Source: Minisyncoccota bacterium (lineage in GTDB: Bacteria; Patescibacteriota; Minisyncoccia; Phycocordibacterales; Phycocordibacteraceae). From it: a stretch of DNA of 64,000 nt. Position 1 is the first letter of the stretch. Every line of letters starts with the position of its first letter. The DNA lies in assembly GCA_041664265.1 (NCBI GenBank), contig JBAYLD010000001.1, forward strand, positions 134,358-198,357. The letters are read 5' to 3'. Of the stretch, positions 17,915-63,031 are shown in pieces. Below the pieces are notes generated by a model that made no database searches, had not been told where the DNA came from, and saw only the letters and a list, made by a program, of their open reading frames with translations. The position numbers and the translations under genes are program-made.

Positions 17915-18040
17915 CAGAACTGCGAGTCTGACTCGCAGTTCTCGTGACTTGGACATCCGATGTCCAATTTGGTACCCTACTCTCCGGACGCTATTTGCTA
18001 CAGAACTGCAGTTAAACCTAAAAGAAAGAGGAGGTGCATC

Positions 18041-22005: not shown

Positions 22006-22035
22006 AACCCCAAAGCTGGTTTTATTTCTTTCTCC

Positions 22036-22086
22036 CAGCACTCGCTCAGAAGAATGAAATAAGAATTTCATTCTTCGTTCGCTCGC
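22036..22086. repeat. ~51-nt palindromic intergenic element, copy A (in the trxB 5' leader)
   Basis: ccagcactcgctcag AAGAATGAAAT aag AATTTCATTCTT cgttcgctcg. About 85 percent identical to the reverse complement of copy B at 44894-44944. Confidence 0.5.
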
Positions 22087-29558: not shown

Positions 29559-30395
29559 ATGAAATCAAAAAAATACAACCCTCGCGCCAAGCGGCGTCCT
29601 AGCCGGGCAAGTGCGCCTCGGCATGACAAATCTTTTGCAGGAGGAAAAGAGAAGGTCTACATCTATGGCAAGCACGCGCTCATGGAGGCCCTGCGTAATG
29701 CGCCGAAGGTGATTCGAAAGGTATTCCTCGCACCCGACTTAAAAGATGCCGAGCTGCGCGCCCTCTTAACAAAAAACGCCATCCCTACTGCTGAACTTGC
29801 TTCAGGCAAGGGCAAAGAGCTCGTGGGCAAAGACACAGTGCACCAGGGCGTCATCGCGGTCATGAACCCTGCTGCCCTACTTATGTCGTTCGATGATTTT
29901 TTGGCTGACCCTTCGCTTTGCTCAGGGTCCGCTAAAACTGCAGTAGCAGTTTTAGCGGAGATGCAGGATCCGCACAATGTCGGTGCGGTCATCCGCTCGG
30001 CCGCCGCCTTCGGCCTCTCGGCCGTCCTCATCCCCGAGCACCATCAGGCGGGCATCACGGGCGCCGTCGTGAAGAGCTCCGCCGGCATGGCCTTCCGTAT
30101 CCCGCTCGTCTCGATCGGCAACGTGAACAATGCGCTCAAGGCTCTGAAAGATAAGGGCTTCTGGATCTACGGCCTCGCAATGGATGGTAAAACGGCTCTC
30201 GGCGCAGAGGCGTTCGATGCACCGACCGCATTCGTCATCGGCAACGAGGGCGCCGGGATCCGCGAGAAGACGCTCATCGCTTGCGACGTCACGCTCGCGA
30301 TCCCCATGCACGCGCGCACCGAATCGCTCAACGCTGCTGCCTCGGCAGCCATCGTCTTCTACGAGTGGTCGAGCAAGCACCCAGAGGCGTTATGA
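29559..30395 (+). CDS. rlmB: TrmH/SpoU-family rRNA 2'-O-methyltransferase (RlmB-like)
   Basis: 278 aa. DPHNVGAVIRSAAAFG, FVIGNEGAGI, LAIPMHARTESLNAAASAAIVFYE. Confidence 0.7.
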   Translation: MKSKKYNPRAKRRPSRASAPRHDKSFAGGKEKVYIYGKHALMEALRNAPKVIRKVFLAPDLKDAELRALLTKNAIPTAELASGKGKELVGKDTVHQGVIAVMNPAALLMSFDDFLADPSLCSGSAKTAVAVLAEMQDPHNVGAVIRSAAAFGLSAVLIPEHHQAGITGAVVKSSAGMAFRIPLVSIGNVNNALKALKDKGFWIYGLAMDGKTALGAEAFDAPTAFVIGNEGAGIREKTLIACDVTLAIPMHARTESLNAAASAAIVFYEWSSKHPEAL

Positions 30396-31255
30396 GTGAA
30401 AAGGAGATTGTAGTGCTCTACCATGGCGGCTGCCCCGACGGCTTCAGCGGCGCCTATGCCGCGTGGAAGAAATTCGGCGATACAGCAGAATATATCCCAT
30501 TAAAACTACATGCCCGGCCGGTCCCTGAAGGACTCGCGGGCAGGCGGTTATTTTTCATTGATTTCACCTATCCGCAGGACATCATGGACGAGATCGTGAG
30601 GACCGCCGCATCGGTCACCGTTCTCGACCATCATCGAGGCATACAAGAAGTGGTTGAACGCATGCCCGAACATGTCTTTGACGAGAAGCGGTCCGGTGCG
30701 ACCATCGCGTGGAGCTACTTCCATCCGGACACTCCTGTTCCCGTTCTGCTGAGATACGTCGAGGATGGCGATCGGTACGTCTTCCAGCTCCCGGATTCTC
30801 GCGCAGTGCTCGCCTATGCCTATACACAAAAATTTACGTTTGAAGCATGGGACCAGTTGGTACAAGAGTTTGAAGATGAAAAGACGCGTGCGACATTGCT
30901 GGAGAAAGGAAAAGTGTATGCAGAGCATTTTGCCATTCTGGTCGGGCAGATCGCCAACAAAGCAAAGCTTGTGTCGTTTGAAGGCTTCACGTGCCCCCTC
31001 GTCTCTGCTGCGGACATGTTCACTTCTGATGTGGGGAATCGGCTCGCACAAGAGCGCCCGCCGCTCGGCATCGTGGTCAACTTCCGCGAGGATGTCCTCC
31101 ATGTGTCGCTCCGGAGCACTCCCGACCTGGATGTCTCGATCATCGCGCAGAAGTATGGCGGCAATGGCCACCCGCAAGCCGCCGCATTCAATGTCGCCTG
31201 GGGTTGCCCGCTCCCTTGGACCGTTTTAGAGGAACATGAGAATCCTTGCCGTTGA
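30392..31255 (+). CDS. DHH-family phosphoesterase (NrnA-like)
   Basis: Start at MSEKEIVVLYHGGCPDGF, ATGA overlap with rlmB. DHH motif VLDHHRG. Confidence 0.55.
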   Translation: MSEKEIVVLYHGGCPDGFSGAYAAWKKFGDTAEYIPLKLHARPVPEGLAGRRLFFIDFTYPQDIMDEIVRTAASVTVLDHHRGIQEVVERMPEHVFDEKRSGATIAWSYFHPDTPVPVLLRYVEDGDRYVFQLPDSRAVLAYAYTQKFTFEAWDQLVQEFEDEKTRATLLEKGKVYAEHFAILVGQIANKAKLVSFEGFTCPLVSAADMFTSDVGNRLAQERPPLGIVVNFREDVLHVSLRSTPDLDVSIIAQKYGGNGHPQAAAFNVAWGCPLPWTVLEEHENPCR

Positions 31256-32534
31256 AACCTCTTGTGACGAGACTGCCATCGCGATTCTTGAATGCAGTGG
31301 CGACCCCTCGGCAGGACTCGGGACAAGTGAAAACGCGACCTGTACCGTGCTCGGGAACGCGCTCCTCTCGCAGATAGACCTGCACAAGCAGTATGGCGGC
31401 GTCTTCCCCGCGCTCGCCAAACGTGAGCATGCGAAGAATCTCGTGCCGATCCTCGAAGCGGCACTTGAGGAGGCGGAGTGTGTTCGGAAAGGAAAACAGA
31501 TGATATCTGATGGGCTGTTGGCCGAAGTTGAGGCTATGTTGGCGCGTGAGCCCGGCCTTACCGAAGCCTTTTTCGCTTTTGTCTCTGAATGCGAACCGCC
31601 AGCGATCGACGCGATTGCGGTTACCGCGGGTCCCGGACTTGAGCCCGCGCTCTGGGTCGGCATCAACTTCGCGAAGGCGCTCGCTCTCGTATGGCAGAAG
31701 CCGCTCGTCGCAGTGAATCATATGGAGGGACATATTCTCGCTGCCATCGCGCAAAGAACACAAGGAGACACCTCGCCTTCGCGAGGAGTCACCTTGCGCA
31801 AATCCGAAACAGAAAAATTAGAAATTAAAAATGTACAATTTCCAATACTCGCACTGCTGATATCCGGCGGACATACCCAACTTGTGCTGATGAAAAAATG
31901 GCTTGAGTATGAGCTCGTCGGCGAGACGCGCGACGATGCCGTCGGCGAGGCCTTCGATAAGGTCGCGCGCATGCTCGCGCTCCCCTATCCGGGCGGGCCA
32001 GAGATCTCGCGCCTCGCTGAAGAAGTCAGACAGGAATGTCAGGACATCGGAAGTCCCACATCAGATGTGGGACTTCCGATGTCCCACACATGGGCGAAAC
32101 TGCCGCGGCCGATGATTAACGAAAATAGCTGCGACTTCTCATTTGCAGGATTGAAAACCGCGGTGTTGAACCTTTTGAAAAAGGTCCCCGATATCCGCGA
32201 CGAAGACAAGAAGCATATCGCCCACGAGTTCGAAAACGCCGTCACTGACGTATTGTGGAAGAAGACTGCGCGTGCGCTCAAAGAGACGGGAGCCAAGACG
32301 CTCGTCATCGGCGGCGGCGTCTCGGCGAATACTCATATCAAACGCACCTTCCGAGAAAACATCGCTCAAGAATTCGGGAATATCGATCTTCGCATACCGA
32401 AGGCGAGCCTCTCGACCGACAACGCCATCATGATCGGGCTCGCCGGCTACTATCGCGCCTTACGCGAAGAAGTTGTCCAACCTTCCGACGAACTCAAAGC
32501 AAACGGTAATCTCTCTCTCGCAAAAAAGCCCTGA
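31236..32534 (+). CDS. tsaD: tRNA N6-adenosine threonylcarbamoyltransferase TsaD (Kae1/Gcp), carrying in-frame insertions
   Basis: 432 aa. MRILAVETSCDETAIAIL, HMEGHILAA, VIGGGVSANTHIKR. It is about 90 aa longer than typical TsaD. The insertions coincide with palindromic repeats at 31763-31794 and 32042-32084. Confidence 0.85.
   Translation: MRILAVETSCDETAIAILECSGDPSAGLGTSENATCTVLGNALLSQIDLHKQYGGVFPALAKREHAKNLVPILEAALEEAECVRKGKQMISDGLLAEVEAMLAREPGLTEAFFAFVSECEPPAIDAIAVTAGPGLEPALWVGINFAKALALVWQKPLVAVNHMEGHILAAIAQRTQGDTSPSRGVTLRKSETEKLEIKNVQFPILALLISGGHTQLVLMKKWLEYELVGETRDDAVGEAFDKVARMLALPYPGGPEISRLAEEVRQECQDIGSPTSDVGLPMSHTWAKLPRPMINENSCDFSFAGLKTAVLNLLKKVPDIRDEDKKHIAHEFENAVTDVLWKKTARALKETGAKTLVIGGGVSANTHIKRTFRENIAQEFGNIDLRIPKASLSTDNAIMIGLAGYYRALREEVVQPSDELKANGNLSLAKKP
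32042..32084. repeat. 43-nt perfect palindrome inside the tsaD coding sequence
   Basis: ggacatcggaagtcccacatc a gatgtgggacttccgatgtcc. Both strands encode DIGSPTSDVGLPMS. Confidence 0.8.
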
Positions 32535-44861: not shown

Positions 44862-44893
44862 CTTTCTATTTTACTCTAATTTCCACTGCTCGG

Positions 44894-44944
44894 CGAGTGA
44901 ACAAAGAATGAAATTCCTATGTCATTCTTTTGAACAAGCACTGG
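44894..44944. repeat. ~51-nt palindromic intergenic element, copy B (in the murJ 5' leader)
   Basis: cgagtgaacaAAGAATGAAATtcctatgTCATTCTTttgaacaagcactgg. Inverted relative to copy A. Confidence 0.5.
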
Positions 44945-44963
44945 CAGAAAGCCAGCTTCTGGC

Positions 44964-47420: not shown

Positions 47421-48231
47421 CCGTAAGGTGTCCGTAAGGTGTCACCTTACGGAATCAATAAAACGCTAGAAACCGTAAGGTGTCACCTTACGGAACATGC
47501 TACTATTACCGAATATGACAAAGAGAGACGTCCCGTTTGCTGTCGGGGAGTGGTACCACTGTTATAATCGTGGCATTGAGAAGCGTATCGTATTTGAAGA
47601 TATTCGAGATTATCACCGCTTCCTTGAGCTCCTTTATTTGGCGAATGATGAGTTTCCTCTCCGGCGTGACGATATCGGCCTATATAAATTTGAAGAGATA
47701 TTAAAGGTTCCTCGCGGCAAGAAATTAGTCGCTATTGGAGCATTCTGCTTGATGCCAAACCACTTCCACTTAGTTTTGAAAGAGGTTGTGGATGGAGGCA
47801 TTACCGCATTTATGCGGAAAATCGGGACGGCATATGCTCTGTATTTTAATGCACGGCACGGACGGACGGGAAACCTGTTCCTCAAGCCGTTTCGATCCCG
47901 CCATGTATCTACCGATCGCTACTTTCAGCACCTTATCAATTATGTGCACTGTAACCCAGCGGCGCTCTCTGAACCCGAGTGGAAAACCAGCCATGTTGTG
48001 GACCCTCAGTTCTTGGGAGAACAAATCGCCGCATACCCGTATTCAAGTCTTGGTACCCATGCGGGCGCACACACGCCGACCAGCGCTATCCTAGACGCGG
48101 AGGTGTTCTCTCTAGCGCGTACGGTTCAAATACAAAAGATGCTACAGGAAGCGCGACAGTATTATGCTGATTCCGACCTTTCCCTTCCGTAAGGTGTCAC
48201 CTTACATCTGCTGTAAGGTGACACCTTACGG
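47421..48231 (+). mobile_element. IS200/IS605-family (RAYT-like) element 2, with hairpin doublets at both ends
   Basis: Perfect palindrome ccgtaaggtgtcaccttacgg at 47432-47452 and 47473-47493 (left). Related hairpins at 48187-48205 and 48213-48231 (right). These differ from the element 1 hairpins. Confidence 0.65.
47497..48192 (+). CDS. Y1 HuH transposase, IS200-like / RAYT-like (paralog of 9544..10248)
   Basis: 231 aa. YHCYNRG, HuH MPNHFHLVL, Tyr region GNLFLKPFRSRHVSTDRYFQHLINYVHCNP. Confidence 0.65.
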   Translation: MLLLPNMTKRDVPFAVGEWYHCYNRGIEKRIVFEDIRDYHRFLELLYLANDEFPLRRDDIGLYKFEEILKVPRGKKLVAIGAFCLMPNHFHLVLKEVVDGGITAFMRKIGTAYALYFNARHGRTGNLFLKPFRSRHVSTDRYFQHLINYVHCNPAALSEPEWKTSHVVDPQFLGEQIAAYPYSSLGTHAGAHTPTSAILDAEVFSLARTVQIQKMLQEARQYYADSDLSLP

Positions 48232-48248
48232 AATGTGGTATAATAAGC

Positions 48249-48592
48249 GCGGACCGGGCTAAGCGATCGCTGGCGGCGTAACGCGCCGACTAGAGGAAAG
48301 TCCGAACATGCGCTCGCTGCAAGGTGAGCAAGAAAGGTAGCGGGTAACGCCCGTCGTCCGTGAGGATAGAGGTGACCACAGTGACGCCAAAACCGAGAGG
48401 TGAAGGGTTCCCTTCGGGGAATAATCTCGCCGCAAGACGAGGGTGCAACGAACAAATCCTTACCCGCATGCAAGGCCGTGTCCCGAGTCCGCCAACTGGT
48501 GGACGAGGGAAGTGCCGCTTGATCCTGAGAGCAATCGAAGGGCTAGATAAATGATCGCTCACGACAGAATTCGGCTTATCGGCCCGGTCCAC
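48249..48592 (+). ncRNA. rnpB: RNase P RNA, bacterial type A
   Basis: P1 pairing: 5' GGACCGGGC with 3' GCCCGGTCC. Conserved GAGGAAAGTCCGAACA (P4 5' strand), GGTAACGCCCG, and 3' region GGCTAGATAAATGATCGCTCACGACAGAATTCGGCTTATCGG, which closely matches E. coli M1 RNA GCCUAGAUGAAUGACUGUCCACGACAGAACCCGGCUUAUCGG. Confidence 0.85.
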
Positions 48593-48597
48593 ATACA

Positions 48598-48633: not shown

Positions 48634-49623
48634 CTACTTACTGACCGGAATTAATTTTGAAAGTTTATGCGCATTACCATGCCTCAACATACCGCGATAC
48701 GATGAGACGTTTCCCTCGCTCGGGTTCCCACTCACCGCTTTCAGCATCCGCCGCTTCGTGCTCGTGCGCAAAACGCGATGATCGGAGAAATGCACCCAGC
48801 CGAGGAAATCAACGCCCGAGGCGAATGTTTTGATGAAAACCTTGTCCGGATGGAGATCAAGCTTTAGCCGATCACGCAAGAATGCTCCTATAGGCTGGAG
48901 GACGTTACACAGATATGATCGGTCACGCGAAAGAATAACAAAATCATCGGAATAGCGGATATAATGGCGTGCTTTTAATTTGTGCTTCACGAACTGATCA
49001 AACTCATTCATATAGATATTCACGAGAAGTTGGCTCGTAAGATTCCCAAGCGGCAAACCCTTACCAAGACCGGTTGAATGAAAACTCTCAATTATGTTTT
49101 GCAGCAAGGCTATAATTCGTTCATCAGGAATATGCCTCCGTAAGATTTCGAGCAATATTTGCTGATCAATGGATGCAAAAAACTTTCTGATGTCACACTT
49201 AAGCACCCATGCGGTCCTCGCGTGGTTTTTACTCTCCTGACATGCATATCGCCTGAAGGCATTCATTGCGCGATGAGTCCCCTTCTCTAGCCGACAAGAG
49301 TATGAGTCGGTGATAAACGTGCTGTTGAAAACCGGATACAAAATTCTGTAGATAGCATGGTGCACCAACCGGTCGCGTACGCTCGCTTTATGTATGTCGC
49401 GCGGTTTTGGATCGCTGATCTTGAAATGGGTATACGAGCCATGTCGGTATGCACCTGAGACAAGATCCGAATGGAGTGTAAAAATATTCCGTACGAGATC
49501 GTATTCGAACGCCTGCACGTCTTTCTTTTTCTGCTTGCCGTGTAAGAACTCTTTCCATGCGTCGAGCAGGTTGTTGGTAGAAATGATATTGTCGTAGGAA
49601 TGGGAGTCACCGATTCTACTCAT
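48634..49623 (-). CDS. Diversity-generating retroelement reverse transcriptase
   Basis: The ORF runs to 49749; the likely start is MSRIGDSH at 49623. RT motifs LKCDIRKFFASID and YIRYSDDFVIL. The DGR-diagnostic motif GLPLGNLTSQLLVNIYMNEFDQFVKH ([ILV]GxxxSQ) is close to Bordetella bRT. No maturase or endonuclease domain. Confidence 0.85.
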   Translation of the reverse strand: MSRIGDSHSYDNIISTNNLLDAWKEFLHGKQKKKDVQAFEYDLVRNIFTLHSDLVSGAYRHGSYTHFKISDPKPRDIHKASVRDRLVHHAIYRILYPVFNSTFITDSYSCRLEKGTHRAMNAFRRYACQESKNHARTAWVLKCDIRKFFASIDQQILLEILRRHIPDERIIALLQNIIESFHSTGLGKGLPLGNLTSQLLVNIYMNEFDQFVKHKLKARHYIRYSDDFVILSRDRSYLCNVLQPIGAFLRDRLKLDLHPDKVFIKTFASGVDFLGWVHFSDHRVLRTSTKRRMLKAVSGNPSEGNVSSYRGMLRHGNAHKLSKLIPVSK

Positions 49624-50031
49624 ACCCTTGAACGTACCCCCCCCCGGACGATTCCGCAAGAAAAACTCGTGGCGGTCGTGTTGAAACTGAAAGAGACATA
49701 CCTTGCGTGGCAGATGGCGCTCCCACATGTCGCAAAAGCTCGACGGCAAACAATAGCCGCGCGCATTGACGGGGCACTTCTCGACACACTTGAATACGCA
49801 TTTCGAGCCGAATATCTCTCGGGACTGCTGAAAATTAAAGCAATCGAGGTATCAATCGAGAGACTCGATGTAGCCAAATTCTTTTTGCTGGTCGGATGGG
49901 AAAGCGATGCCATTACGAACGATCAGCATCTCCGTATAACGGGGCTTCTCATTGAGGCGAGCAAAATGCTCGTTGGTTGGAAGGCATATCTTGAAAAGAA
50001 AACTCCCGCGGATGAGGGCGGGAGAAAGTAA
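49600..50031 (+). CDS. Avd-like (accessory variability determinant, 23S rRNA IVS four-helix-bundle family) protein
   Basis: 143 aa from the ATG; an alternative GTG start at 49669 gives 120 aa. Basic helical protein. LKETYLAWQMALPHVAKARR and C-terminal ITGLLIEASKMLVGWKAYL resemble Avd motifs. It is divergent from the RT gene and antisense to the TR-RT spacer. Confidence 0.5.
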   Translation: MGVTDSTHTLERTPPRTIPQEKLVAVVLKLKETYLAWQMALPHVAKARRQTIAARIDGALLDTLEYAFRAEYLSGLLKIKAIEVSIERLDVAKFFLLVGWESDAITNDQHLRITGLLIEASKMLVGWKAYLEKKTPADEGGRK

Positions 50032-50037
50032 GACCTG

Positions 50038-50145
50038 TTTCGGACGAGAAGGCGATTGTCGGCGTTCCAGCGATTGCCGTTGTCGAGGCTGTTGACGTTC
50101 GCGTTCCAACCGCGCCCATCGCGGTTGACGTTGCCAACCGAGACG
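50038..50145 (-). repeat. DGR template repeat (TR)
   Basis: 108-nt match to the VR. In minus-strand sense it carries AAC/AAT codons (G N V N R D G R G W N A N V N S L D N G N R W N A D N R L L V R) at every variable position. Confidence 0.85.
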
Positions 50146-50415: not shown

Positions 50416-51120
50416 TCAGAGTTTCTGAGTGTCCAAGTTGCGGACGAGAAGGCGATAGTCGGCGCTCCAGCGATAGCCGCGGCCGAGGCTGCGGACGCCC
50501 GCGCCCCAACCGCGCCCATCGCGGCTGACGTAGCCGACCGAGACGGGATTCTTTGGATTTCCGGTCTCAATGAAGAAGAAATTCCCATACCCGTCGGTAC
50601 GCATCCCGGTCTCCTCACTTTTCTCGGTCTTCTCGACCATTTCTTCTGCCTCCGCAAGAGTCATGGTGTGACCTTGCTTGATGAGGTACTCACCGATAGT
50701 CGCGACATCCGTGTTTGTGTCGATACCGATGATACCGAGAACGGCAACGGCGGCCTCAATGAATGTCCACTCTCGCGAGGGAGCCAGGGTTGTAATGGTG
50801 CAGGCATCGGCGTTCGGCTGATCGGCAGGGAGCCAATTGTCGAAGTCGCTGTCGCGATACGTCCACCGCGAACCTGTGAAGCATTTCTTCGTTTTCTTTT
50901 CCTTAATCGCGGCGAGGCTAGTCGTTGCGCTTACGGAGAATAACGGATCGTGTTTCGCCGGCGGTACAGGCACGCTTTCCTTTTTCACAAACGGCTCTTC
51001 ACGACGAAGAAAGCGTTTTGCCTCCTCCTCGCTAATCGAACCGTTGTGAAGCTTTGTGACGAAATCCAGTGTGATACCGAAACGATCGCTCGCTTGGGTT
51101 CCCGAGCATGTTTCTAACAT
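50416..51120 (-). CDS. DGR target (variable) protein with a C-type-lectin/FGE-like C-terminal VR
   Basis: 234 aa. C-terminus ...GYVSRDGRGWGAGVRSLGRGYRWSADYRLLVRN is encoded by the VR and follows the RGGxW...R...N..R..GFR-like pattern of CLec-fold DGR targets. No signal peptide detected. Confidence 0.7.
   Translation of the reverse strand: MLETCSGTQASDRFGITLDFVTKLHNGSISEEEAKRFLRREEPFVKKESVPVPPAKHDPLFSVSATTSLAAIKEKKTKKCFTGSRWTYRDSDFDNWLPADQPNADACTITTLAPSREWTFIEAAVAVLGIIGIDTNTDVATIGEYLIKQGHTMTLAEAEEMVEKTEKSEETGMRTDGYGNFFFIETGNPKNPVSVGYVSRDGRGWGAGVRSLGRGYRWSADYRLLVRNLDTQKL
50438..50545 (-). repeat. DGR variable repeat (VR) at the 3' end of the target gene
   Basis: 17 TR/VR mismatches: 16 (15 in-repeat plus one at the 3' junction) are at TR adenines (minus strand) and 1 is a synonymous non-A change (gtt/gtc). 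The invariant 3' block cgccttctcgtccg is IMH-like. Confidence 0.85.
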
Positions 51121-57137: not shown

Positions 57138-57716
57138 CTAGAATTGCACTTTGACCGGTTCGTTAGCTGCTTTATCTGACTCTGCAAGCTCGAAGAGATC
57201 CATCAGAGAGAAGCCGAATAGAGAGGCGATGATGTTGCCCGGGAATGACTGGATCGTGGTGTTGAGCGCCATCACGGTCGTGTTATAGAAGCGACGCGCG
57301 GCCTGGATCTTGTCTTCGGTATCGCCGAGCTCTTGCTGGAGCTGGAGGAAGTTCTGATTCGCTTTCAAATCCGGATACGCTTCTGAGACGGCAAAGAGCG
57401 TTTTTAAGGCGCCCGAGAGCTGATTCTCGGCCTGTACCTTGTCGGCAGTGCTGCCCGGCATCGAACTCGATGCCCCCATCGCAGCCGCACGCGCCTTGGT
57501 CACATTCTCAAACGCGCTTGATTCGTGTGCGGCATAACCCTTGACGGTCTCAACAAGATTCGGGATAAGGTCATAGCGGCGCTTCAACTGCACGGCGATA
57601 TCAGCCCATGCCTCCTTCGCGCGGTTGGTAAGCAACACGAGACGGTTAAAGGCGAACACGACCCAAAGCACGATTATGGCAACAAGAGCGAGAAGCACAA
57701 TGGTGGTGGTAGACAT
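57138..57716 (-). CDS. lemA: LemA-family protein
   Basis: Start set at MSTTTIVLL. AWADIAVQLKRRYDLIPNLVETVKGYAAHE is typical of LemA. Classic htpX-lemA pairing. Confidence 0.75.
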   Translation of the reverse strand: MSTTTIVLLALVAIIVLWVVFAFNRLVLLTNRAKEAWADIAVQLKRRYDLIPNLVETVKGYAAHESSAFENVTKARAAAMGASSSMPGSTADKVQAENQLSGALKTLFAVSEAYPDLKANQNFLQLQQELGDTEDKIQAARRFYNTTVMALNTTIQSFPGNIIASLFGFSLMDLFELAESDKAANEPVKVQF

Positions 57717-57738
57717 ATCTAGAAGTATACTACAAAAA

Positions 57739-59925
57739 ATGAACATGGAAGACACTCTCGAGAAGCACTTCACGCGGCTTAAGCCGGAGCAGAAGCGGGC
57801 GCTGCATAAGCTAAAAGTTCGCACGATACGCGACCTGCTCTATCACTTCCCCGCTCGCTATGAATCAGCCGGCCAGACAGTGACTATTGCCGGTATTTCA
57901 GCGGGTGCCGAGGTGACGCTTTACGGCACCATCAGGAAGCCCGATGTGCGGAAGACGTGGAAGAGCCGCCGCCCGATCGCCGAGGCGTGGCTCGAGGACG
58001 CTTCGGGCAAGATCAAGATGATGTGGTTCTCTCAGCCCTACATCGCCAAGACGCTCCATGACGGTATGGTGGTGAAGGTGAGCGGGAAGGTAGCGGGAGA
58101 AGGCACCAAGATCTATTTGGCAAATCCAGCGATTGATAAGTCACCTATCGCGCCTGATGCGGCAATTGACTCGCTCTTCACGAGCCGAGGAGACACCTCG
58201 CAGCGAGGAGTCACCTCAGCTCTGTATCCGATTTATCCCGAGAGCCAAGGTGTCTCCTCGCTCTGGTTCTTGCACGCGGTGAAGAAAATATTTGAGACGG
58301 GAGTGCACGAAGGCATTGAGGACCCAATCCCGCCTGAGATCCTTGCACGCTACAATTTGCCATCGCTCTCTGCCGCACTCGTGTTTATACACGCACCGAA
58401 GAAGCTTTCTGATGCCGCGGCGGCGCGCAAGCGCTTCGCCTTTGAAGAAATCTTCGCGCTTCAAATACGAATGCAACAAAATCGGCAATGTCGCAGTGAG
58501 GAGAGAGCCCTGGCAGTAAACGTGGACATAGCGGCGAGACGCCGCGTCAACGACTTCATCGCCTCGTTCCCCTTCCCCGCCACGGCCGCACAGACGCAGG
58601 CGATCGAAGCAATCGTCGCCGACTTCGAGAAATCAAACCCCATGTTGCGACTCCTCGAGGGCGACGTGGGCAGCGGTAAAACTGCCGTCGCCGCCGCGAC
58701 CGCTTATTTGGTGGCGACATCACTACCTCGCGGGCGGATCGCCGGCACACTCCAAGTCGCGTATCTCTGCCCCACCGAGATCCTCGCCAAACAGCACTTC
58801 TCTACCTTCGTCTCATATTTTAAAGACCACCCCATCCCAATCGGCCTTATCACCGGGAGCGAATGCCGCAAGTTCCCTTCTCGCGTGCGGTATGAAGAAT
58901 CCGCCAAGCTCTCGAAGGCGGCGTTTAAGAAGATGGTGGCGAATGGCGAGATCCCGATCGTCATCGGCACGCACGCGCTCATCGAGAAGTCGCTCGCCTT
59001 TAAATATTTTGCCTATGCGATCGTCGACGAACAGCATCGCTTCGGCACGGCGCACCGACAGAAGCTCGTTATGAAAGGTGATGTGGCCCCTCATTTACTC
59101 TCTATGACCGCGACGCCGATCCCGCGCACGCTCGCGCTCGCGCTCTATGGCGACCTTGATCTCACACTCCTCGACGAGATGCCGGTGGGTAGGAAAAAGG
59201 TCATTACCGAGGTACTGGGCTCAAAAGAGCGCGAACGCGCCTACGAGCGCGTTCGCGCCGAACTCGCCCTCGGCCACCAGGCGTATGTGATCTGCCCCCG
59301 AATAGACGAGCCTGACCCGGCCAAAGAGCTCGCGCTCCAAACCAAATCGGTAAAGGCCGAAGCGGCACGGCTCCAAAAAGAGGTCTTCCCTGAAGCAGTT
59401 ATAGACATCCTACACAGCAAGATGACGCCAAAAGAGAAGGAGGACGTGATGAAAGAATTTGAGAATGGAAAAATAAATATCCTCGTTGCAACGTCTGTAG
59501 TAGAAGTGGGTGTGAACGTCGCGAACGCGACCGTGATCCTTATTGAGGGCGCCGAACGATTCGGGCTCGCCCAGCTGCATCAGCTCCGCGGGCGAGTGAT
59601 CCGCTCGATCCATCAGTCCTACTGCTTCGCCCTGCCCGAGTCGAGCGGCGAGACCACGCGCGAGCGAATGAAAGCGTTTATGCAGGCGAAAAACGGCTTC
59701 GAGCTCGCCGAATATGACCTCGCGCTCCGTGGTGCGGGCGAGCTCGCGGGCGGCAAGCAGTGGGGTGTCTCTGACATCGCGATGGAGGCGTTAAAGAATA
59801 TTAAATTGGTCGAAGCCGCTCGCACCGAGGCGGCGACCCTCGTCGCCGCCGATCCCGACCTTAAAAACCACCCCGCCCTCTCCGCTCGCGCCGCCACGGC
59901 GGATAAAGAGATGCATTTAGAGTAA
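57739..59925 (+). CDS. recG: ATP-dependent DNA helicase RecG, carrying an in-frame palindromic-repeat insertion
   Basis: Start set at MNMEDTL. Walker A GDVGSGKTAV, DEQHRFG, wedge/OB N-terminal domain. The 79-nt inverted-repeat element at 58185-58263 encodes SRGDTSQRGVTSALYPIYPESQGVSS. Confidence 0.85.
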   Translation: MNMEDTLEKHFTRLKPEQKRALHKLKVRTIRDLLYHFPARYESAGQTVTIAGISAGAEVTLYGTIRKPDVRKTWKSRRPIAEAWLEDASGKIKMMWFSQPYIAKTLHDGMVVKVSGKVAGEGTKIYLANPAIDKSPIAPDAAIDSLFTSRGDTSQRGVTSALYPIYPESQGVSSLWFLHAVKKIFETGVHEGIEDPIPPEILARYNLPSLSAALVFIHAPKKLSDAAAARKRFAFEEIFALQIRMQQNRQCRSEERALAVNVDIAARRRVNDFIASFPFPATAAQTQAIEAIVADFEKSNPMLRLLEGDVGSGKTAVAAATAYLVATSLPRGRIAGTLQVAYLCPTEILAKQHFSTFVSYFKDHPIPIGLITGSECRKFPSRVRYEESAKLSKAAFKKMVANGEIPIVIGTHALIEKSLAFKYFAYAIVDEQHRFGTAHRQKLVMKGDVAPHLLSMTATPIPRTLALALYGDLDLTLLDEMPVGRKKVITEVLGSKERERAYERVRAELALGHQAYVICPRIDEPDPAKELALQTKSVKAEAARLQKEVFPEAVIDILHSKMTPKEKEDVMKEFENGKINILVATSVVEVGVNVANATVILIEGAERFGLAQLHQLRGRVIRSIHQSYCFALPESSGETTRERMKAFMQAKNGFELAEYDLALRGAGELAGGKQWGVSDIAMEALKNIKLVEAARTEAATLVAADPDLKNHPALSARAATADKEMHLE
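58185..58263. repeat. Intragenic palindromic repeat in recG (GGAGACACCTCGC family)
   Basis: ccgaggagacacctcgcagcgaggagtcacctc...ccaaggtgtctcctcgctc. 12-14 bp terminal inverted repeats. The core is shared with tsaD 31763-31794 (aggagacacctcgccttcgcgaggagtcacct). Confidence 0.6.
59869..59918 (+). repeat. 50-bp perfect direct repeat, copy 1 (3' end of recG)
   Basis: caccccgccctctccgctcgcgccgccacggcggataaagagatgcattt. Identical copy at 60464-60513. Confidence 0.9.
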
Positions 59926-59949: not shown

Positions 59950-60411
59950 ATGAAAAACTATCCGAAAATAAATATAGGCATTGGTGGCGTTATCCTTCGC
60001 GGCAAGTCAAAAATCCTTCTGACTAAACGGAAAACTGACCCGTCGGTTTGGACAATTCCAAGCGGCTATATGGAGAAAGATGAAAATATATTTGAAACAA
60101 TCATAAGAGAGGCGAAGGAGGAAACAAATATTGTCATAAAACCACGAGGTGTTGTTGGAGTACGGCAGCGAATTACCGAAAAAGAAGGAAATAACTTTTG
60201 GATACTTACAATCGCTGATTACAAATCTGGGAAAGTCACGCCGGACAATTCTGAAATTTTAGAAACGCAATTCATACCATTATCAAAGGCTTTACAAGAA
60301 AAAATAACACCTGTGACCAAATACATACTAAAAATGCTATTAAAAAATAAACTGCAGATTCTTCTGCCGCAAAAAAGTCTTGATCAGAAACAGTATAGGC
60401 TTTTTTCTTAG
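59950..60411 (+). CDS. Nudix hydrolase (on an AT-rich inserted cassette)
   Basis: 153 aa. Nudix box GYMEKDENIFETIIREAKEETNI. Local base composition is clearly more AT-rich than the surroundings. Confidence 0.75.
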   Translation: MKNYPKINIGIGGVILRGKSKILLTKRKTDPSVWTIPSGYMEKDENIFETIIREAKEETNIVIKPRGVVGVRQRITEKEGNNFWILTIADYKSGKVTPDNSEILETQFIPLSKALQEKITPVTKYILKMLLKNKLQILLPQKSLDQKQYRLFS

Positions 60412-60463: not shown

Positions 60464-60513
60464 CACCCCGCCCTCTCCGCTCGCGCCGCCACGGCGGATA
60501 AAGAGATGCATTT
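60464..60513 (+). repeat. 50-bp perfect direct repeat, copy 2 (recreates a recG-like 3' end, ...EMHLE stop)
   Basis: Identical to 59869-59918, followed by ggaataa. Confidence 0.9.
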
Positions 60514-60545
60514 GGAATAAATATGGACTTACGATGTCCATAACT

Positions 60546-62559: not shown

Positions 62560-62584
62560 ACAGAGCACTATACCTTGTTTTTTG

Positions 62585-62981
62585 TGGAGGTGTCGAGAGT
62601 CGAACTCGAGTCCGAATCCATCAATGAAAGCGAGTCTACGACGCATAGTCAGCGTTAATTTTAGGGCAGGATGCGAAGAACGCAGACGAAACCATTCCTG
62701 CCCGATCCCTTATTTAGACGCGCCGGGCGGGAGGCCGGGCATCGATCCTACAGAATATTCCGCCCCTGCCTCCGGCTGTAAGAACCCGAGAGGAGAGACG
62801 TCGCTAGGCGAGCGGTTAGGCTGCGTAGGCGAACGCGAAGTCACGCGCACCGAAGTACGGAGACTTCACGCTTGCAAGAGTGTTCTTGGCAAGTTTGGTT
62901 GCTTGTTGGATGTAAGTGTCATACAAGCTTGCACTGCGTCGCACGTCTTTCAAAGTACAGACCGTCAAAGCCGGTCACCCC
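62585..62981 (-). ncRNA. ssrA: tmRNA (transfer-messenger RNA)
   Basis: Minus-strand 5' GGGGGTGACCGGCTTTGACGG (E. coli GGGGCUGAUUCUGGAUUCGACGG). 3' GGATTCGGACTCGAGTTCGACTCTCGACACCTCCA tRNA-like T-arm and acceptor. Candidate tag ORF ...GCG CGT GAC TTC GCG TTC GCC TAC GCA GCC TAA ([10 protein letters not shown]). Directly downstream of smpB. Confidence 0.8.
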
Positions 62982-63031
62982 CTGTCAATTGATACGCACG
63001 AATGCCTACAAACTGACAGTGATTGATCGAA

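Follow-up and report, generated by a model that had tools for sequence, protein, structure and literature searches.

REP-like hairpins within tsaD and recG of a Patescibacterium and a RAYT-like transposase gene flanked by members of the same repeat family

How do two housekeeping genes of one bacterium come to carry nearly the same short palindrome in frame with their coding sequence? This question is raised by a stretch of 64,000 nucleotides (nt) from an uncultured, Paceibacterota/Kaiserbacteria-like Minisyncoccota bacterium of the Patescibacteria (GenBank assembly GCA_041664265.1, contig JBAYLD010000001.1, positions 134,358 to 198,357 of the forward strand), which we analysed at its full length and refer to as the window. 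A preliminary description of this DNA had reported that tsaD and recG share a core of about 30 nt made of two near-inverted half-sites, and had suggested that both copies belong to a family of small mobile palindromes able to enter coding regions with the frame left intact. We found both repeats in the two genes, and the core proved to belong to hairpins of 33–36 nt built from two 15-nt units. Across the family, the element is an imperfect DNA hairpin of 33–37 nt that consists of two such units and usually contains two symmetric A.A mismatches. The tsaD and recG sequences are probably copies of an element that resembles repetitive extragenic palindromes (REPs) and their hairpin-forming doublets (REPINs), with an associated HUH transposase similar to the REP-associated tyrosine transposases (RAYTs).

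The host gene tsaD (31236–32534, + strand; TIGR03723, E = 7e-102) contains a palindromic dimer of 36 nt at 31761–31796 on the + strand (CAAGGAGACACCTCGCCTTCGCGAGGAGTCACCTTG), which is translated in the frame of the gene as QGDTSPSRGVTL and is composed of unit 1 (CAAGGAGACACCTCG), the spacer CCTTCG and unit 2 (CGAGGAGTCACCTTG). The dimer in recG (57625–59925, + strand; NCBIfam RecG, E = 8e-211) spans 33 nt at 58186–58218 on the + strand (CGAGGAGACACCTCGCAGCGAGGAGTCACCTCA), is translated as RGDTSQRGVTS and has the layout CGAGGAGACACCTCG-CAG-CGAGGAGTCACCTCA. It sits in a hypervariable loop after the motif DSLF, and an outer stem GAGC/GCTC lengthens its hairpin to 58182–58222. The longest open reading frame (ORF) of recG begins at 57625, and the annotated protein of 726 residues, which matches the ortholog P0121 at 100%, begins further downstream. 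Since each half-site is itself a small near-palindrome, we took the 15-mer YRAGG-AGWCA-CCTYG as the basic unit of both dimers. As single strands, each is predicted to form a single long hairpin that contains two symmetric A.A mismatches (tsaD: dG −14.0, z −6.6; recG: dG −9.9, z −3.7 on the + strand and z −5.0 on the − strand). No Rfam family scored above threshold at either site, where the only matches were sub-threshold ones to generic-hairpin miRNA families. In an AlphaFold model of the window TsaD (pLDDT 86.6, pTM 0.88), the 12 residues encoded by the element (about 176–187) are placed in an unstructured loop between the HMEGH helix (162–171) and a strand at 193–197, with pLDDT below 50 for residues 181–190. 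The modelled peptide lies in a disordered surface loop, and this fits a tolerated insertion.

To compare these sites with those of relatives, we aligned 120 TsaD orthologs (P0001–P0120) and 120 RecG orthologs (P0121–P0240). Both element sites are hypervariable loops that are minimal in many orthologs, hold the same peptide in a few and hold other recurrent peptides elsewhere. The two copies are extra relative to many close orthologs, in agreement with the earlier statement that they lie in additional regions. At the DNA level, the window element is identical in 35 of 36 nt (97%) to that in tsaD of locus L004. The two tsaD genes share 67% nucleotide identity overall and 38% at third codon positions, so that the element is the best-conserved stretch of 12 codons in the gene. 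Furthermore, recG of another species (L008) holds a 36-mer identical to the tsaD copy of the window, and recG of L006 and L007 holds sibling variants of it. The same peptide is therefore not encoded by unrelated nucleotides in these orthologs. The repeat is a DNA element and not a conserved peptide.

Presence and absence among orthologs proved to be patchy, with L005, L009 and L157 lacking the element. In the closest relative (L003), tsaD contains it in reverse orientation. In L005 tsaD, 24 nt of the element are missing, and the comparison between L004 and L005 is the only simple difference between a filled and an empty site. The element is also absent from recG of L009, which encodes a RecG with 86% identity, and from recG of L157. 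On neighbour-joining trees computed with the loop masked, the six TsaD carriers require six Fitch changes (5.9 expected at random) and the eight RecG carriers require eight (7.8 expected at random); one carrier is paired with a neighbour that is 95% identical and lacks the element. Carrier status is thus scattered over the orthologs like random labels.

For recG, the preliminary description had gone further and assigned the core to a 79-nt structure closed by an inverted copy at 58248–58263. This inverted copy does exist, and a stretch of 81 nt is predicted to fold (z −5.8), but the copy does not belong to the element. The peptide it encodes, ESQGVSSLW, shows little or no variation among the 120 RecG orthologs, including those without the element, and relatives already have CAG GGC GTC TCC TCG at this place. 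With 7.9 bits and an E-value of about 7 under the covariance model R1 described below, it is not significant. We conclude that 58248–58263 is native recG sequence and reject it as a third element arm.

The conserved feature of the family is the hairpin rather than the peptide. We established this with an alignment of 90 copies from other genomes, collected with a search pattern that imposed none of the scored pairings. In these copies, 92.7% of the paired cells do pair. Pair 6–40 is A-T in 47 copies and G-C in 41 (2 exceptions), pair 18–28 is C-G in 63 and T-A in 26, and the four flanking positions on each side pair in 60–79% of the copies and use all six pair types. The covariation score of 0.30 compares with 0.12 after shuffling; none of 500 shuffles equalled it, and slid registers scored far lower. 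The double mismatch A.A/A.A is the dominant state (50 of 67 copies), and is reminiscent of the mismatch in the stem on which binding by E. coli TnpA_REP depends (PMC3479197). Unit 2 does not reproduce unit 1 directly or in inverted form: the centre is A in one and T in the other, and two flanking asymmetric positions stay A.

Within the window, the family is clearly in excess. The 13-mers of tsaD and recG occur 7 and 8 times with up to two mismatches, compared to 1.8 and 1.7 expected occurrences, and none of 100 shuffles reached these counts. The 11-nt unit AGGNGWCNCCT occurs 10 times, compared to 0.40 expected and a maximum of 2 in 60 simulations. We trained a covariance model (R1) on copies from non-window genomes only and listed matches up to E = 10. 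Exactly four sites are significant. They are the recG dimer (60.4 bits, E = 7.9e-16) and the tsaD dimer (31757–31800; 49.5 bits, E = 1.7e-12), whose scores are partly circular because the pattern for the training set was derived from these two copies, as well as one site on each side of a transposase gene: the doublet downstream of it (35.4 bits, E = 3.3e-8) and a pair of palindromes upstream of it (30.3 bits, E = 1.1e-6). The matches at the transposase flanks are the independent ones, and the upstream site (47431–47494) even falls outside the pattern used to collect the training set. The fifth-best match has an E-value of 0.3. A single unit at 1340–1350 gave no R1 match up to E = 10; for this reason we treat it as chance and reject it as a family member.

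The gene between these two sites (47497–48192, + strand) codes for a RAYT-like HUH/Y1 transposase of 231 residues. The protein matches Pfam Y1_Tnp (IS200-like) with 24.7 bits, above the cutoff of 23, and contains the HUH motif LMPNHFHLVL and the tyrosine motif NYVHCNP. Both motifs are conserved in seven homologs, and LMPNHFHL and Y(I/V)HxNP are invariant or near-invariant across eight. A search of the Protein Data Bank (PDB) with the single sequence gave no match. With a profile of the transposase family, the top PDB match was E. coli TnpA_REP (4ER8), which is weak (E = 0.083) and spans both motifs. Directly upstream of the gene, 47431–47494 contains two perfect 21-nt palindromes (CCGTAAGGTGTCACCTTACGG) at 47432–47452 and 47473–47493. 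At the other end, an inverted REPIN-like doublet (TTCCGTAAGGTGTCACCTTACA-tctgc-TGTAAGGTGACACCTTACGGAA, 48185–48233; dG −25.3, z −13.6) with arms of 22 nt and 100% complementarity overlaps the stop codon of the transposase and ends 18 nt short of a class A RNase P RNA (48251–48594, + strand; 114.5 bits). The units at the transposase flanks start with GTAAGG, symmetrically at both ends, and the intragenic units start with CAAGG or CGAGG. The window holds a single copy of the transposase gene. Homologs with 28–51% identity occur in eight loci that had been fetched solely because they carry the element. At one of these (L066), dimers at 1126–1157 and 1703–1734 directly abut both ends of the homologous ORF. 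In the window and in L066, the transposase gene is therefore flanked by members of the family in the classical RAYT arrangement.

How far the family extends was examined with two scans. The first applied a degenerate dimer pattern, broad enough for all variants seen, to 596 Gb of species-representative genomes, and the second applied a narrower pattern to metagenomes. The genome of the window is in neither collection, as no match shows the CGCCTTCGCG spacer from its sample. The genome scan returned 77 stretches, about 67 of which are in metagenome-assembled genomes (MAGs) of Patescibacteria, compared to about 15 expected by chance according to our own estimate. The highest number per MAG was at least 14 dimer loci with the strict pattern. 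The metagenome scan returned 70 stretches. After removal of duplicates, both scans together contain 120 unique dimer sites in DNA of Patescibacteria, also known as the Candidate Phyla Radiation (CPR). The family is dispersed at the DNA level and is confined essentially to this group. With this census and the two clusters that flank the transposase gene, we can eliminate the possibility that the tsaD and recG copies are an isolated chance pair. The proposed family of small palindromes that keep the frame is supported by this census and by the nucleotide identity among orthologs, and the distribution of the copies is what suggests mobility.

Of the unique sites, 44 (37%) lie deep within ORFs of at least 750 nt, and the remaining copies include intergenic ones. 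Copies of the 33-mer class are intragenic in 30 of 77 cases and those of the 37-mer class in 1 of 21; identical 37-mers occur at many loci, several of them in one MAG. The length of the element itself, when a multiple of three, does not significantly predict an intragenic site overall (34 of 85 versus 10 of 35, Fisher p = 0.30); the one clear contrast is that between the 33-mer and 37-mer classes. According to Pfam, the hosts with roles in repair or replication are UvrA, UvrB, UvrC, UvrD, RecG, topoisomerase I (TopA), the Pol III delta' subunit (HolB) and an HhH-GPD glycosylase. Other hosts are GAPDH, TsaD, Dus, TrmD, a Mur ligase, DHODH, a GT4 glycosyltransferase, a P-type ATPase, an AMP-binding enzyme and possibly enolase. 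Among about 22 distinct intragenic sites (loci L013–L156), about 12 are in repair or replication genes, for which we estimate an expectation of a few per cent. Relative to the host gene, copies are found pointing either way, and in tsaD and GAPDH this is true even of a single orthologous site. The copies are read in several frames, with G-D-T/S...G-V-T/S as the most common reading (28 of 44), and five of the six frames of the element are free of stop codons.

The loops that hold the element also hold other palindromes. In tsaD, a second and unrelated palindrome at 32042–32084 (GGACATCGGAAGTCCCACATC-A-GATGTGGGACTTCCGATGTCC; dG −24.8, z −9.4) has arms of 21 nt with 100% complementarity and encodes QDIGSPTSDVGLPMSH in another loop of low pLDDT. 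Its 15-mer unit, GGACATCSGATGTCC, is found as single intergenic copies at 17951–17965 and 60525–60539, and a doubled GGACATCSGATGTCC fills the recG loop of another Kaiserbacterium (L160, 4208–4249). In relatives, three loops (TsaD after HMEGH, TsaD after ISRLAE and RecG after DSLF) contain varied recurrent mirror-image peptides, including STKHE..NKSQTEKLEIKN, SDLNASSQGRTLE (in both TsaD loops), NTPxISTRLNLVI, GFVNPS..DGFTKP, RLPDLG..RPDLR and RTSDVQV..GHRMS. They have the appearance of translated copies from additional palindrome families, one of which we checked at the DNA level. Their variety in both TsaD loops and in the RecG loop points to colonisation of the same permissive loops by several palindrome families in this clade. 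The AT-rich tail of the tsaD insert (31821–31843) has no second copy within the window. In the gene for a SpoU/TrmH-like methyltransferase, a perfect in-frame hairpin of 14 bp at 29928–29959 (TCCGCTAAAACTGC-cgtg-GCAGTTTTAGCGGA) is read as SAKTAVAVLAE. This hairpin could be a local inverted duplication, since its right arm may be a native conserved motif.

After describing the distribution of the element, we turn to the question as to how it may have reached its sites. If the REP/RAYT-like reading is correct, the RAYT-like enzyme would recognise the mismatched hairpin on single-stranded DNA and would copy or move it in trans, as proposed for REPINs and for IS200/IS605 elements. The repeat itself would then be non-autonomous and REPIN-like. 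Insertions into genes would survive solely where the total indel preserves the frame and where the extra residues, rich in Gly, Asp, Thr, Ser and Arg, fall in a permissive loop. Such a filter would account for the repeated use of the same few loops. Enzymatic mobilisation by the transposase is inferred by analogy with described systems (PMC2817692, PMC3116915, PMC3479197), and several observations weigh against it. We observed no transposition event, no filled/empty polymorphism within a population and no target-site signature. In the two closest filled/empty pairs of recG (L008/L157 and L158/L159, about 85% nucleotide identity), the loop is remodelled, clean insertion boundaries are absent and no target signature could be read. 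A GT(A/G)G head, which E. coli TnpA_REP requires, is missing from the element, and the intragenic copies lack the outer flank TTCCGTA...TACGGAA of those adjacent to the transposase gene. Most transposase homologs at other loci are not directly flanked by the unit (flanking was not seen for the other six). The sole NCBIfam match of the enzyme, REP_Tyr_transpos (NF047646; E = 2e-8), reaches 34.2 bits and is below the cutoff of 80. The RAYT motif NP(L/V)(R/K)xG was not found in the window protein, which reads NYVHCNPAALSE, nor in homologs, which read NPLDYL, NPAELY or NPAKLL; of this motif, NP alone is retained. Likewise, the invariant N-terminal Thr of RAYTs was not found in the alignment of transposase homologs. 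In addition to these points and to the partial circularity of the R1 scores, the strong conservation of the sequence across species could instead mean a function for the host.

This last possibility can be put more concretely. The hairpins may be cis-elements of the host, such as binding sites of a regulator or nucleoid protein or mRNA structures in a repair-rich regulon, with only an incidental association to the transposase. About half of the distinct intragenic sites are indeed in UvrA/B/C/D, RecG, TopA, HolB or a glycosylase gene, the stem is kept by covariation, the mismatches are conserved, and the sequence is near-identical across species with diverged genes. We nevertheless regard this explanation as unlikely. 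The sites are deep in coding regions and in variable loops, not in promoters, and their presence among close orthologs is as patchy as random. The hosts also include GAPDH, TsaD, TrmD, Dus, Mur ligase, DHODH and a glycosyltransferase, the same loops carry unrelated palindromes in other species, and many identical intergenic copies occur within one genome. Moreover, a bias to repair genes is also known from unrelated REP families of other phyla (PMC3733652), which argues against one specific regulator.

The palindromes could also have arisen locally by template switching, fold-back synthesis or quasi-palindrome gene conversion without any transposase, their similarity then being due to conversion or convergence. 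In recG, the native conserved motif QGVSS, 31 nt away, resembles a unit. The "empty" tsaD of L005 already holds one unit, so that a change from monomer to dimer would explain the state of L004. In the SpoU-like gene, the hairpin may consist of an inserted arm that pairs to a native motif, and the loops are remodelled rather than cleanly interrupted. However, local duplication cannot put an identical 36-mer into tsaD and recG of different species, nor the same 33- and 37-mers at dozens of unrelated genic and intergenic loci. Unit 2 does not copy unit 1 in either orientation, and the family flanks a transposase gene. We give a local origin about the same small chance as a host cis-element, and consider both less likely than the REP/RAYT-like reading. 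As for mere chance resemblance, or conservation at the level of the peptide only, two copies were known initially, and G-D-T and G-V-T are common tripeptides. This explanation is refuted by the copy census and the nucleotide-level identity, and the window excess, the stem covariation and the R1 matches also count against it; we assign it almost no probability.

How does the REP/RAYT-like system proposed here relate to those already described? REP/RAYT systems are defined by a transposase gene that lies between copies of a palindrome which is also dispersed at other places (Nunvar 2010, PMC2817692). The REP/REPIN and RAYT systems of Proteobacteria (Nunvar 2010, PMC2817692; Bertels & Rainey 2011, PMC3116915; Messing 2012, PMC3479197) share with the present one dispersed, short (about 20–40 nt for REPs) imperfect palindromes, inverted doublets that often fold into one long hairpin, conserved stem mismatches, compensatory changes that maintain the stem and an HUH/Y1 transposase gene flanked by repeats. 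Canonical REPs have a conserved GT(A/G)G or CGTC head at one end (PMC2817692, PMC3733652, PMC3479197), and RAYTs have NP(L/V)(R/K)xG beside the tyrosine and a conserved N-terminal Thr (PMC2817692). The present element lacks the GT(A/G)G head, and its doublet measures 33–37 nt compared to roughly 100 nt for REPINs. About 37% of its copies are intragenic, whereas REPs are predominantly extragenic. REPs are present in many dispersed copies per genome; for the present family, we counted four sites in the 64-kb window and at least 14 dimer loci in one scanned MAG. RAYTs are single-copy genes whose product binds and cleaves its REP on single-stranded DNA. The enzyme of 231 residues lacks NP(L/V)(R/K)xG and scores below the NCBIfam cutoff for RAYTs, and the host lineage is Patescibacteria. 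Since two defining REP/RAYT features were sought here and not found, we describe the system as a REP/RAYT-like variant and not as a member. Our literature searches returned no report that links REP/RAYT with CPR/Patescibacteria.

Intragenic REPs have a precedent. Di Nocera et al. (2013, PMC3733652) described GTAG/CGTC REPs within genes of Proteobacteria, Opitutus and Rickettsia, as singles or, often, as dimers that encode 20–30 residues, with a marked excess in UvrABCD, RecBCD, PolA and DnaE2, and interpreted them as tolerated in loops or linkers. The present family resembles them by its location in ORFs of known proteins, by the short encoded peptides and by the excess in repair and replication genes. 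It differs in that it is untagged, has another sequence and belongs to another phylum, and in that a given orthologous loop can hold the element in either orientation and can also be occupied by palindromes of several unrelated families. A second precedent is provided by the Rickettsia palindromic elements (RPE), the classic in-frame case, to which PMC3733652 refers (its references 13 and 14). As in our case, palindromic repeats are in frame within functional genes of a reduced genome, and several families coexist. Size and lineage set the present elements apart, which measure 33–43 nt and occur in Patescibacteria, with one family flanking a Y1 transposase gene. RPE-1 has a size of roughly 100–150 bp, and to our knowledge it has no associated transposase. 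Finally, the IS200/IS605 insertion sequences (IS608, ISDra2) have a transposase of the same HUH and tyrosine superfamily and the same type of substrate, that is, imperfect hairpins on single-stranded DNA. They are autonomous insertion sequences with distinct left and right ends that move together with their own transposase gene. Here, the short hairpin alone is dispersed.

Several other repeats in the window are worth recording. The terminal 57 nt of recG (59869–59925), with the stop codon among them, are duplicated 595 nt downstream at 60464–60520 with 96% identity. The duplicates bracket a low-GC ORF (59950–60411) with a Nudix-box-like motif recognised by eye, an arrangement that resembles insertion of a cassette at the recG 3' end, accompanied by target duplication. 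On the − strand at 48634–49749, a reverse-transcriptase ORF (Pfam RVT_1, E = 1e-22) adjoins a pair of 109-nt repeats (50037–50145 and 50437–50545) with 85% identity, in which nearly all mismatches are at positions where copy A has T on the + strand and hence A on the strand of the reverse transcriptase. Judged by this template-repeat/variable-repeat signature, the ORF and the repeat pair are probably a diversity-generating retroelement. An inverted repeat of 59 nt with 83% complementarity has its copies 22.8 kb apart at 22028–22086 and 44893–44951. A small AT-rich hairpin (AAGAATGAAAT...ATTTCATTCTT) lies within each copy, and the repeat may be another dispersed element or a shared terminator. 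The window also contains a tmRNA (62582–62982, − strand) and nine tRNA genes.

In CPR, the present repeat corresponds to the REP and Rickettsia-type palindromes known inside genes. The kind of phenomenon is already known; new are the lineage, the untagged, compact and symmetric element, the divergent transposase, the high intragenic share and a bias to repair genes that is reproduced independently of the 2013 report. These findings extend REP/RAYT-type biology to the Candidate Phyla Radiation and trace some of the puzzling extra loops of CPR proteins to a concrete origin at the DNA level. When CPR housekeeping proteins are aligned, placed in phylogenies or modelled in structure, such inserts can be misleading, and hairpins of 33–37 nt are handy markers for strain typing in metagenomes. 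That an unrelated element repeats the bias of intragenic palindromes to repair genes turns a curiosity of one paper into a repeatable and testable pattern. We further speculate, with considerable reserve, that in Kaiserbacteria-like CPR several unrelated hairpin families may be a main source of lineage-specific loop insertions in conserved proteins, and that the excess in repair genes may reflect a mechanistic coupling beyond mere tolerance. If this were true, the coupling might consist in insertion into single-stranded DNA exposed in damage-induced genes, or in a selfish dampening of repair.

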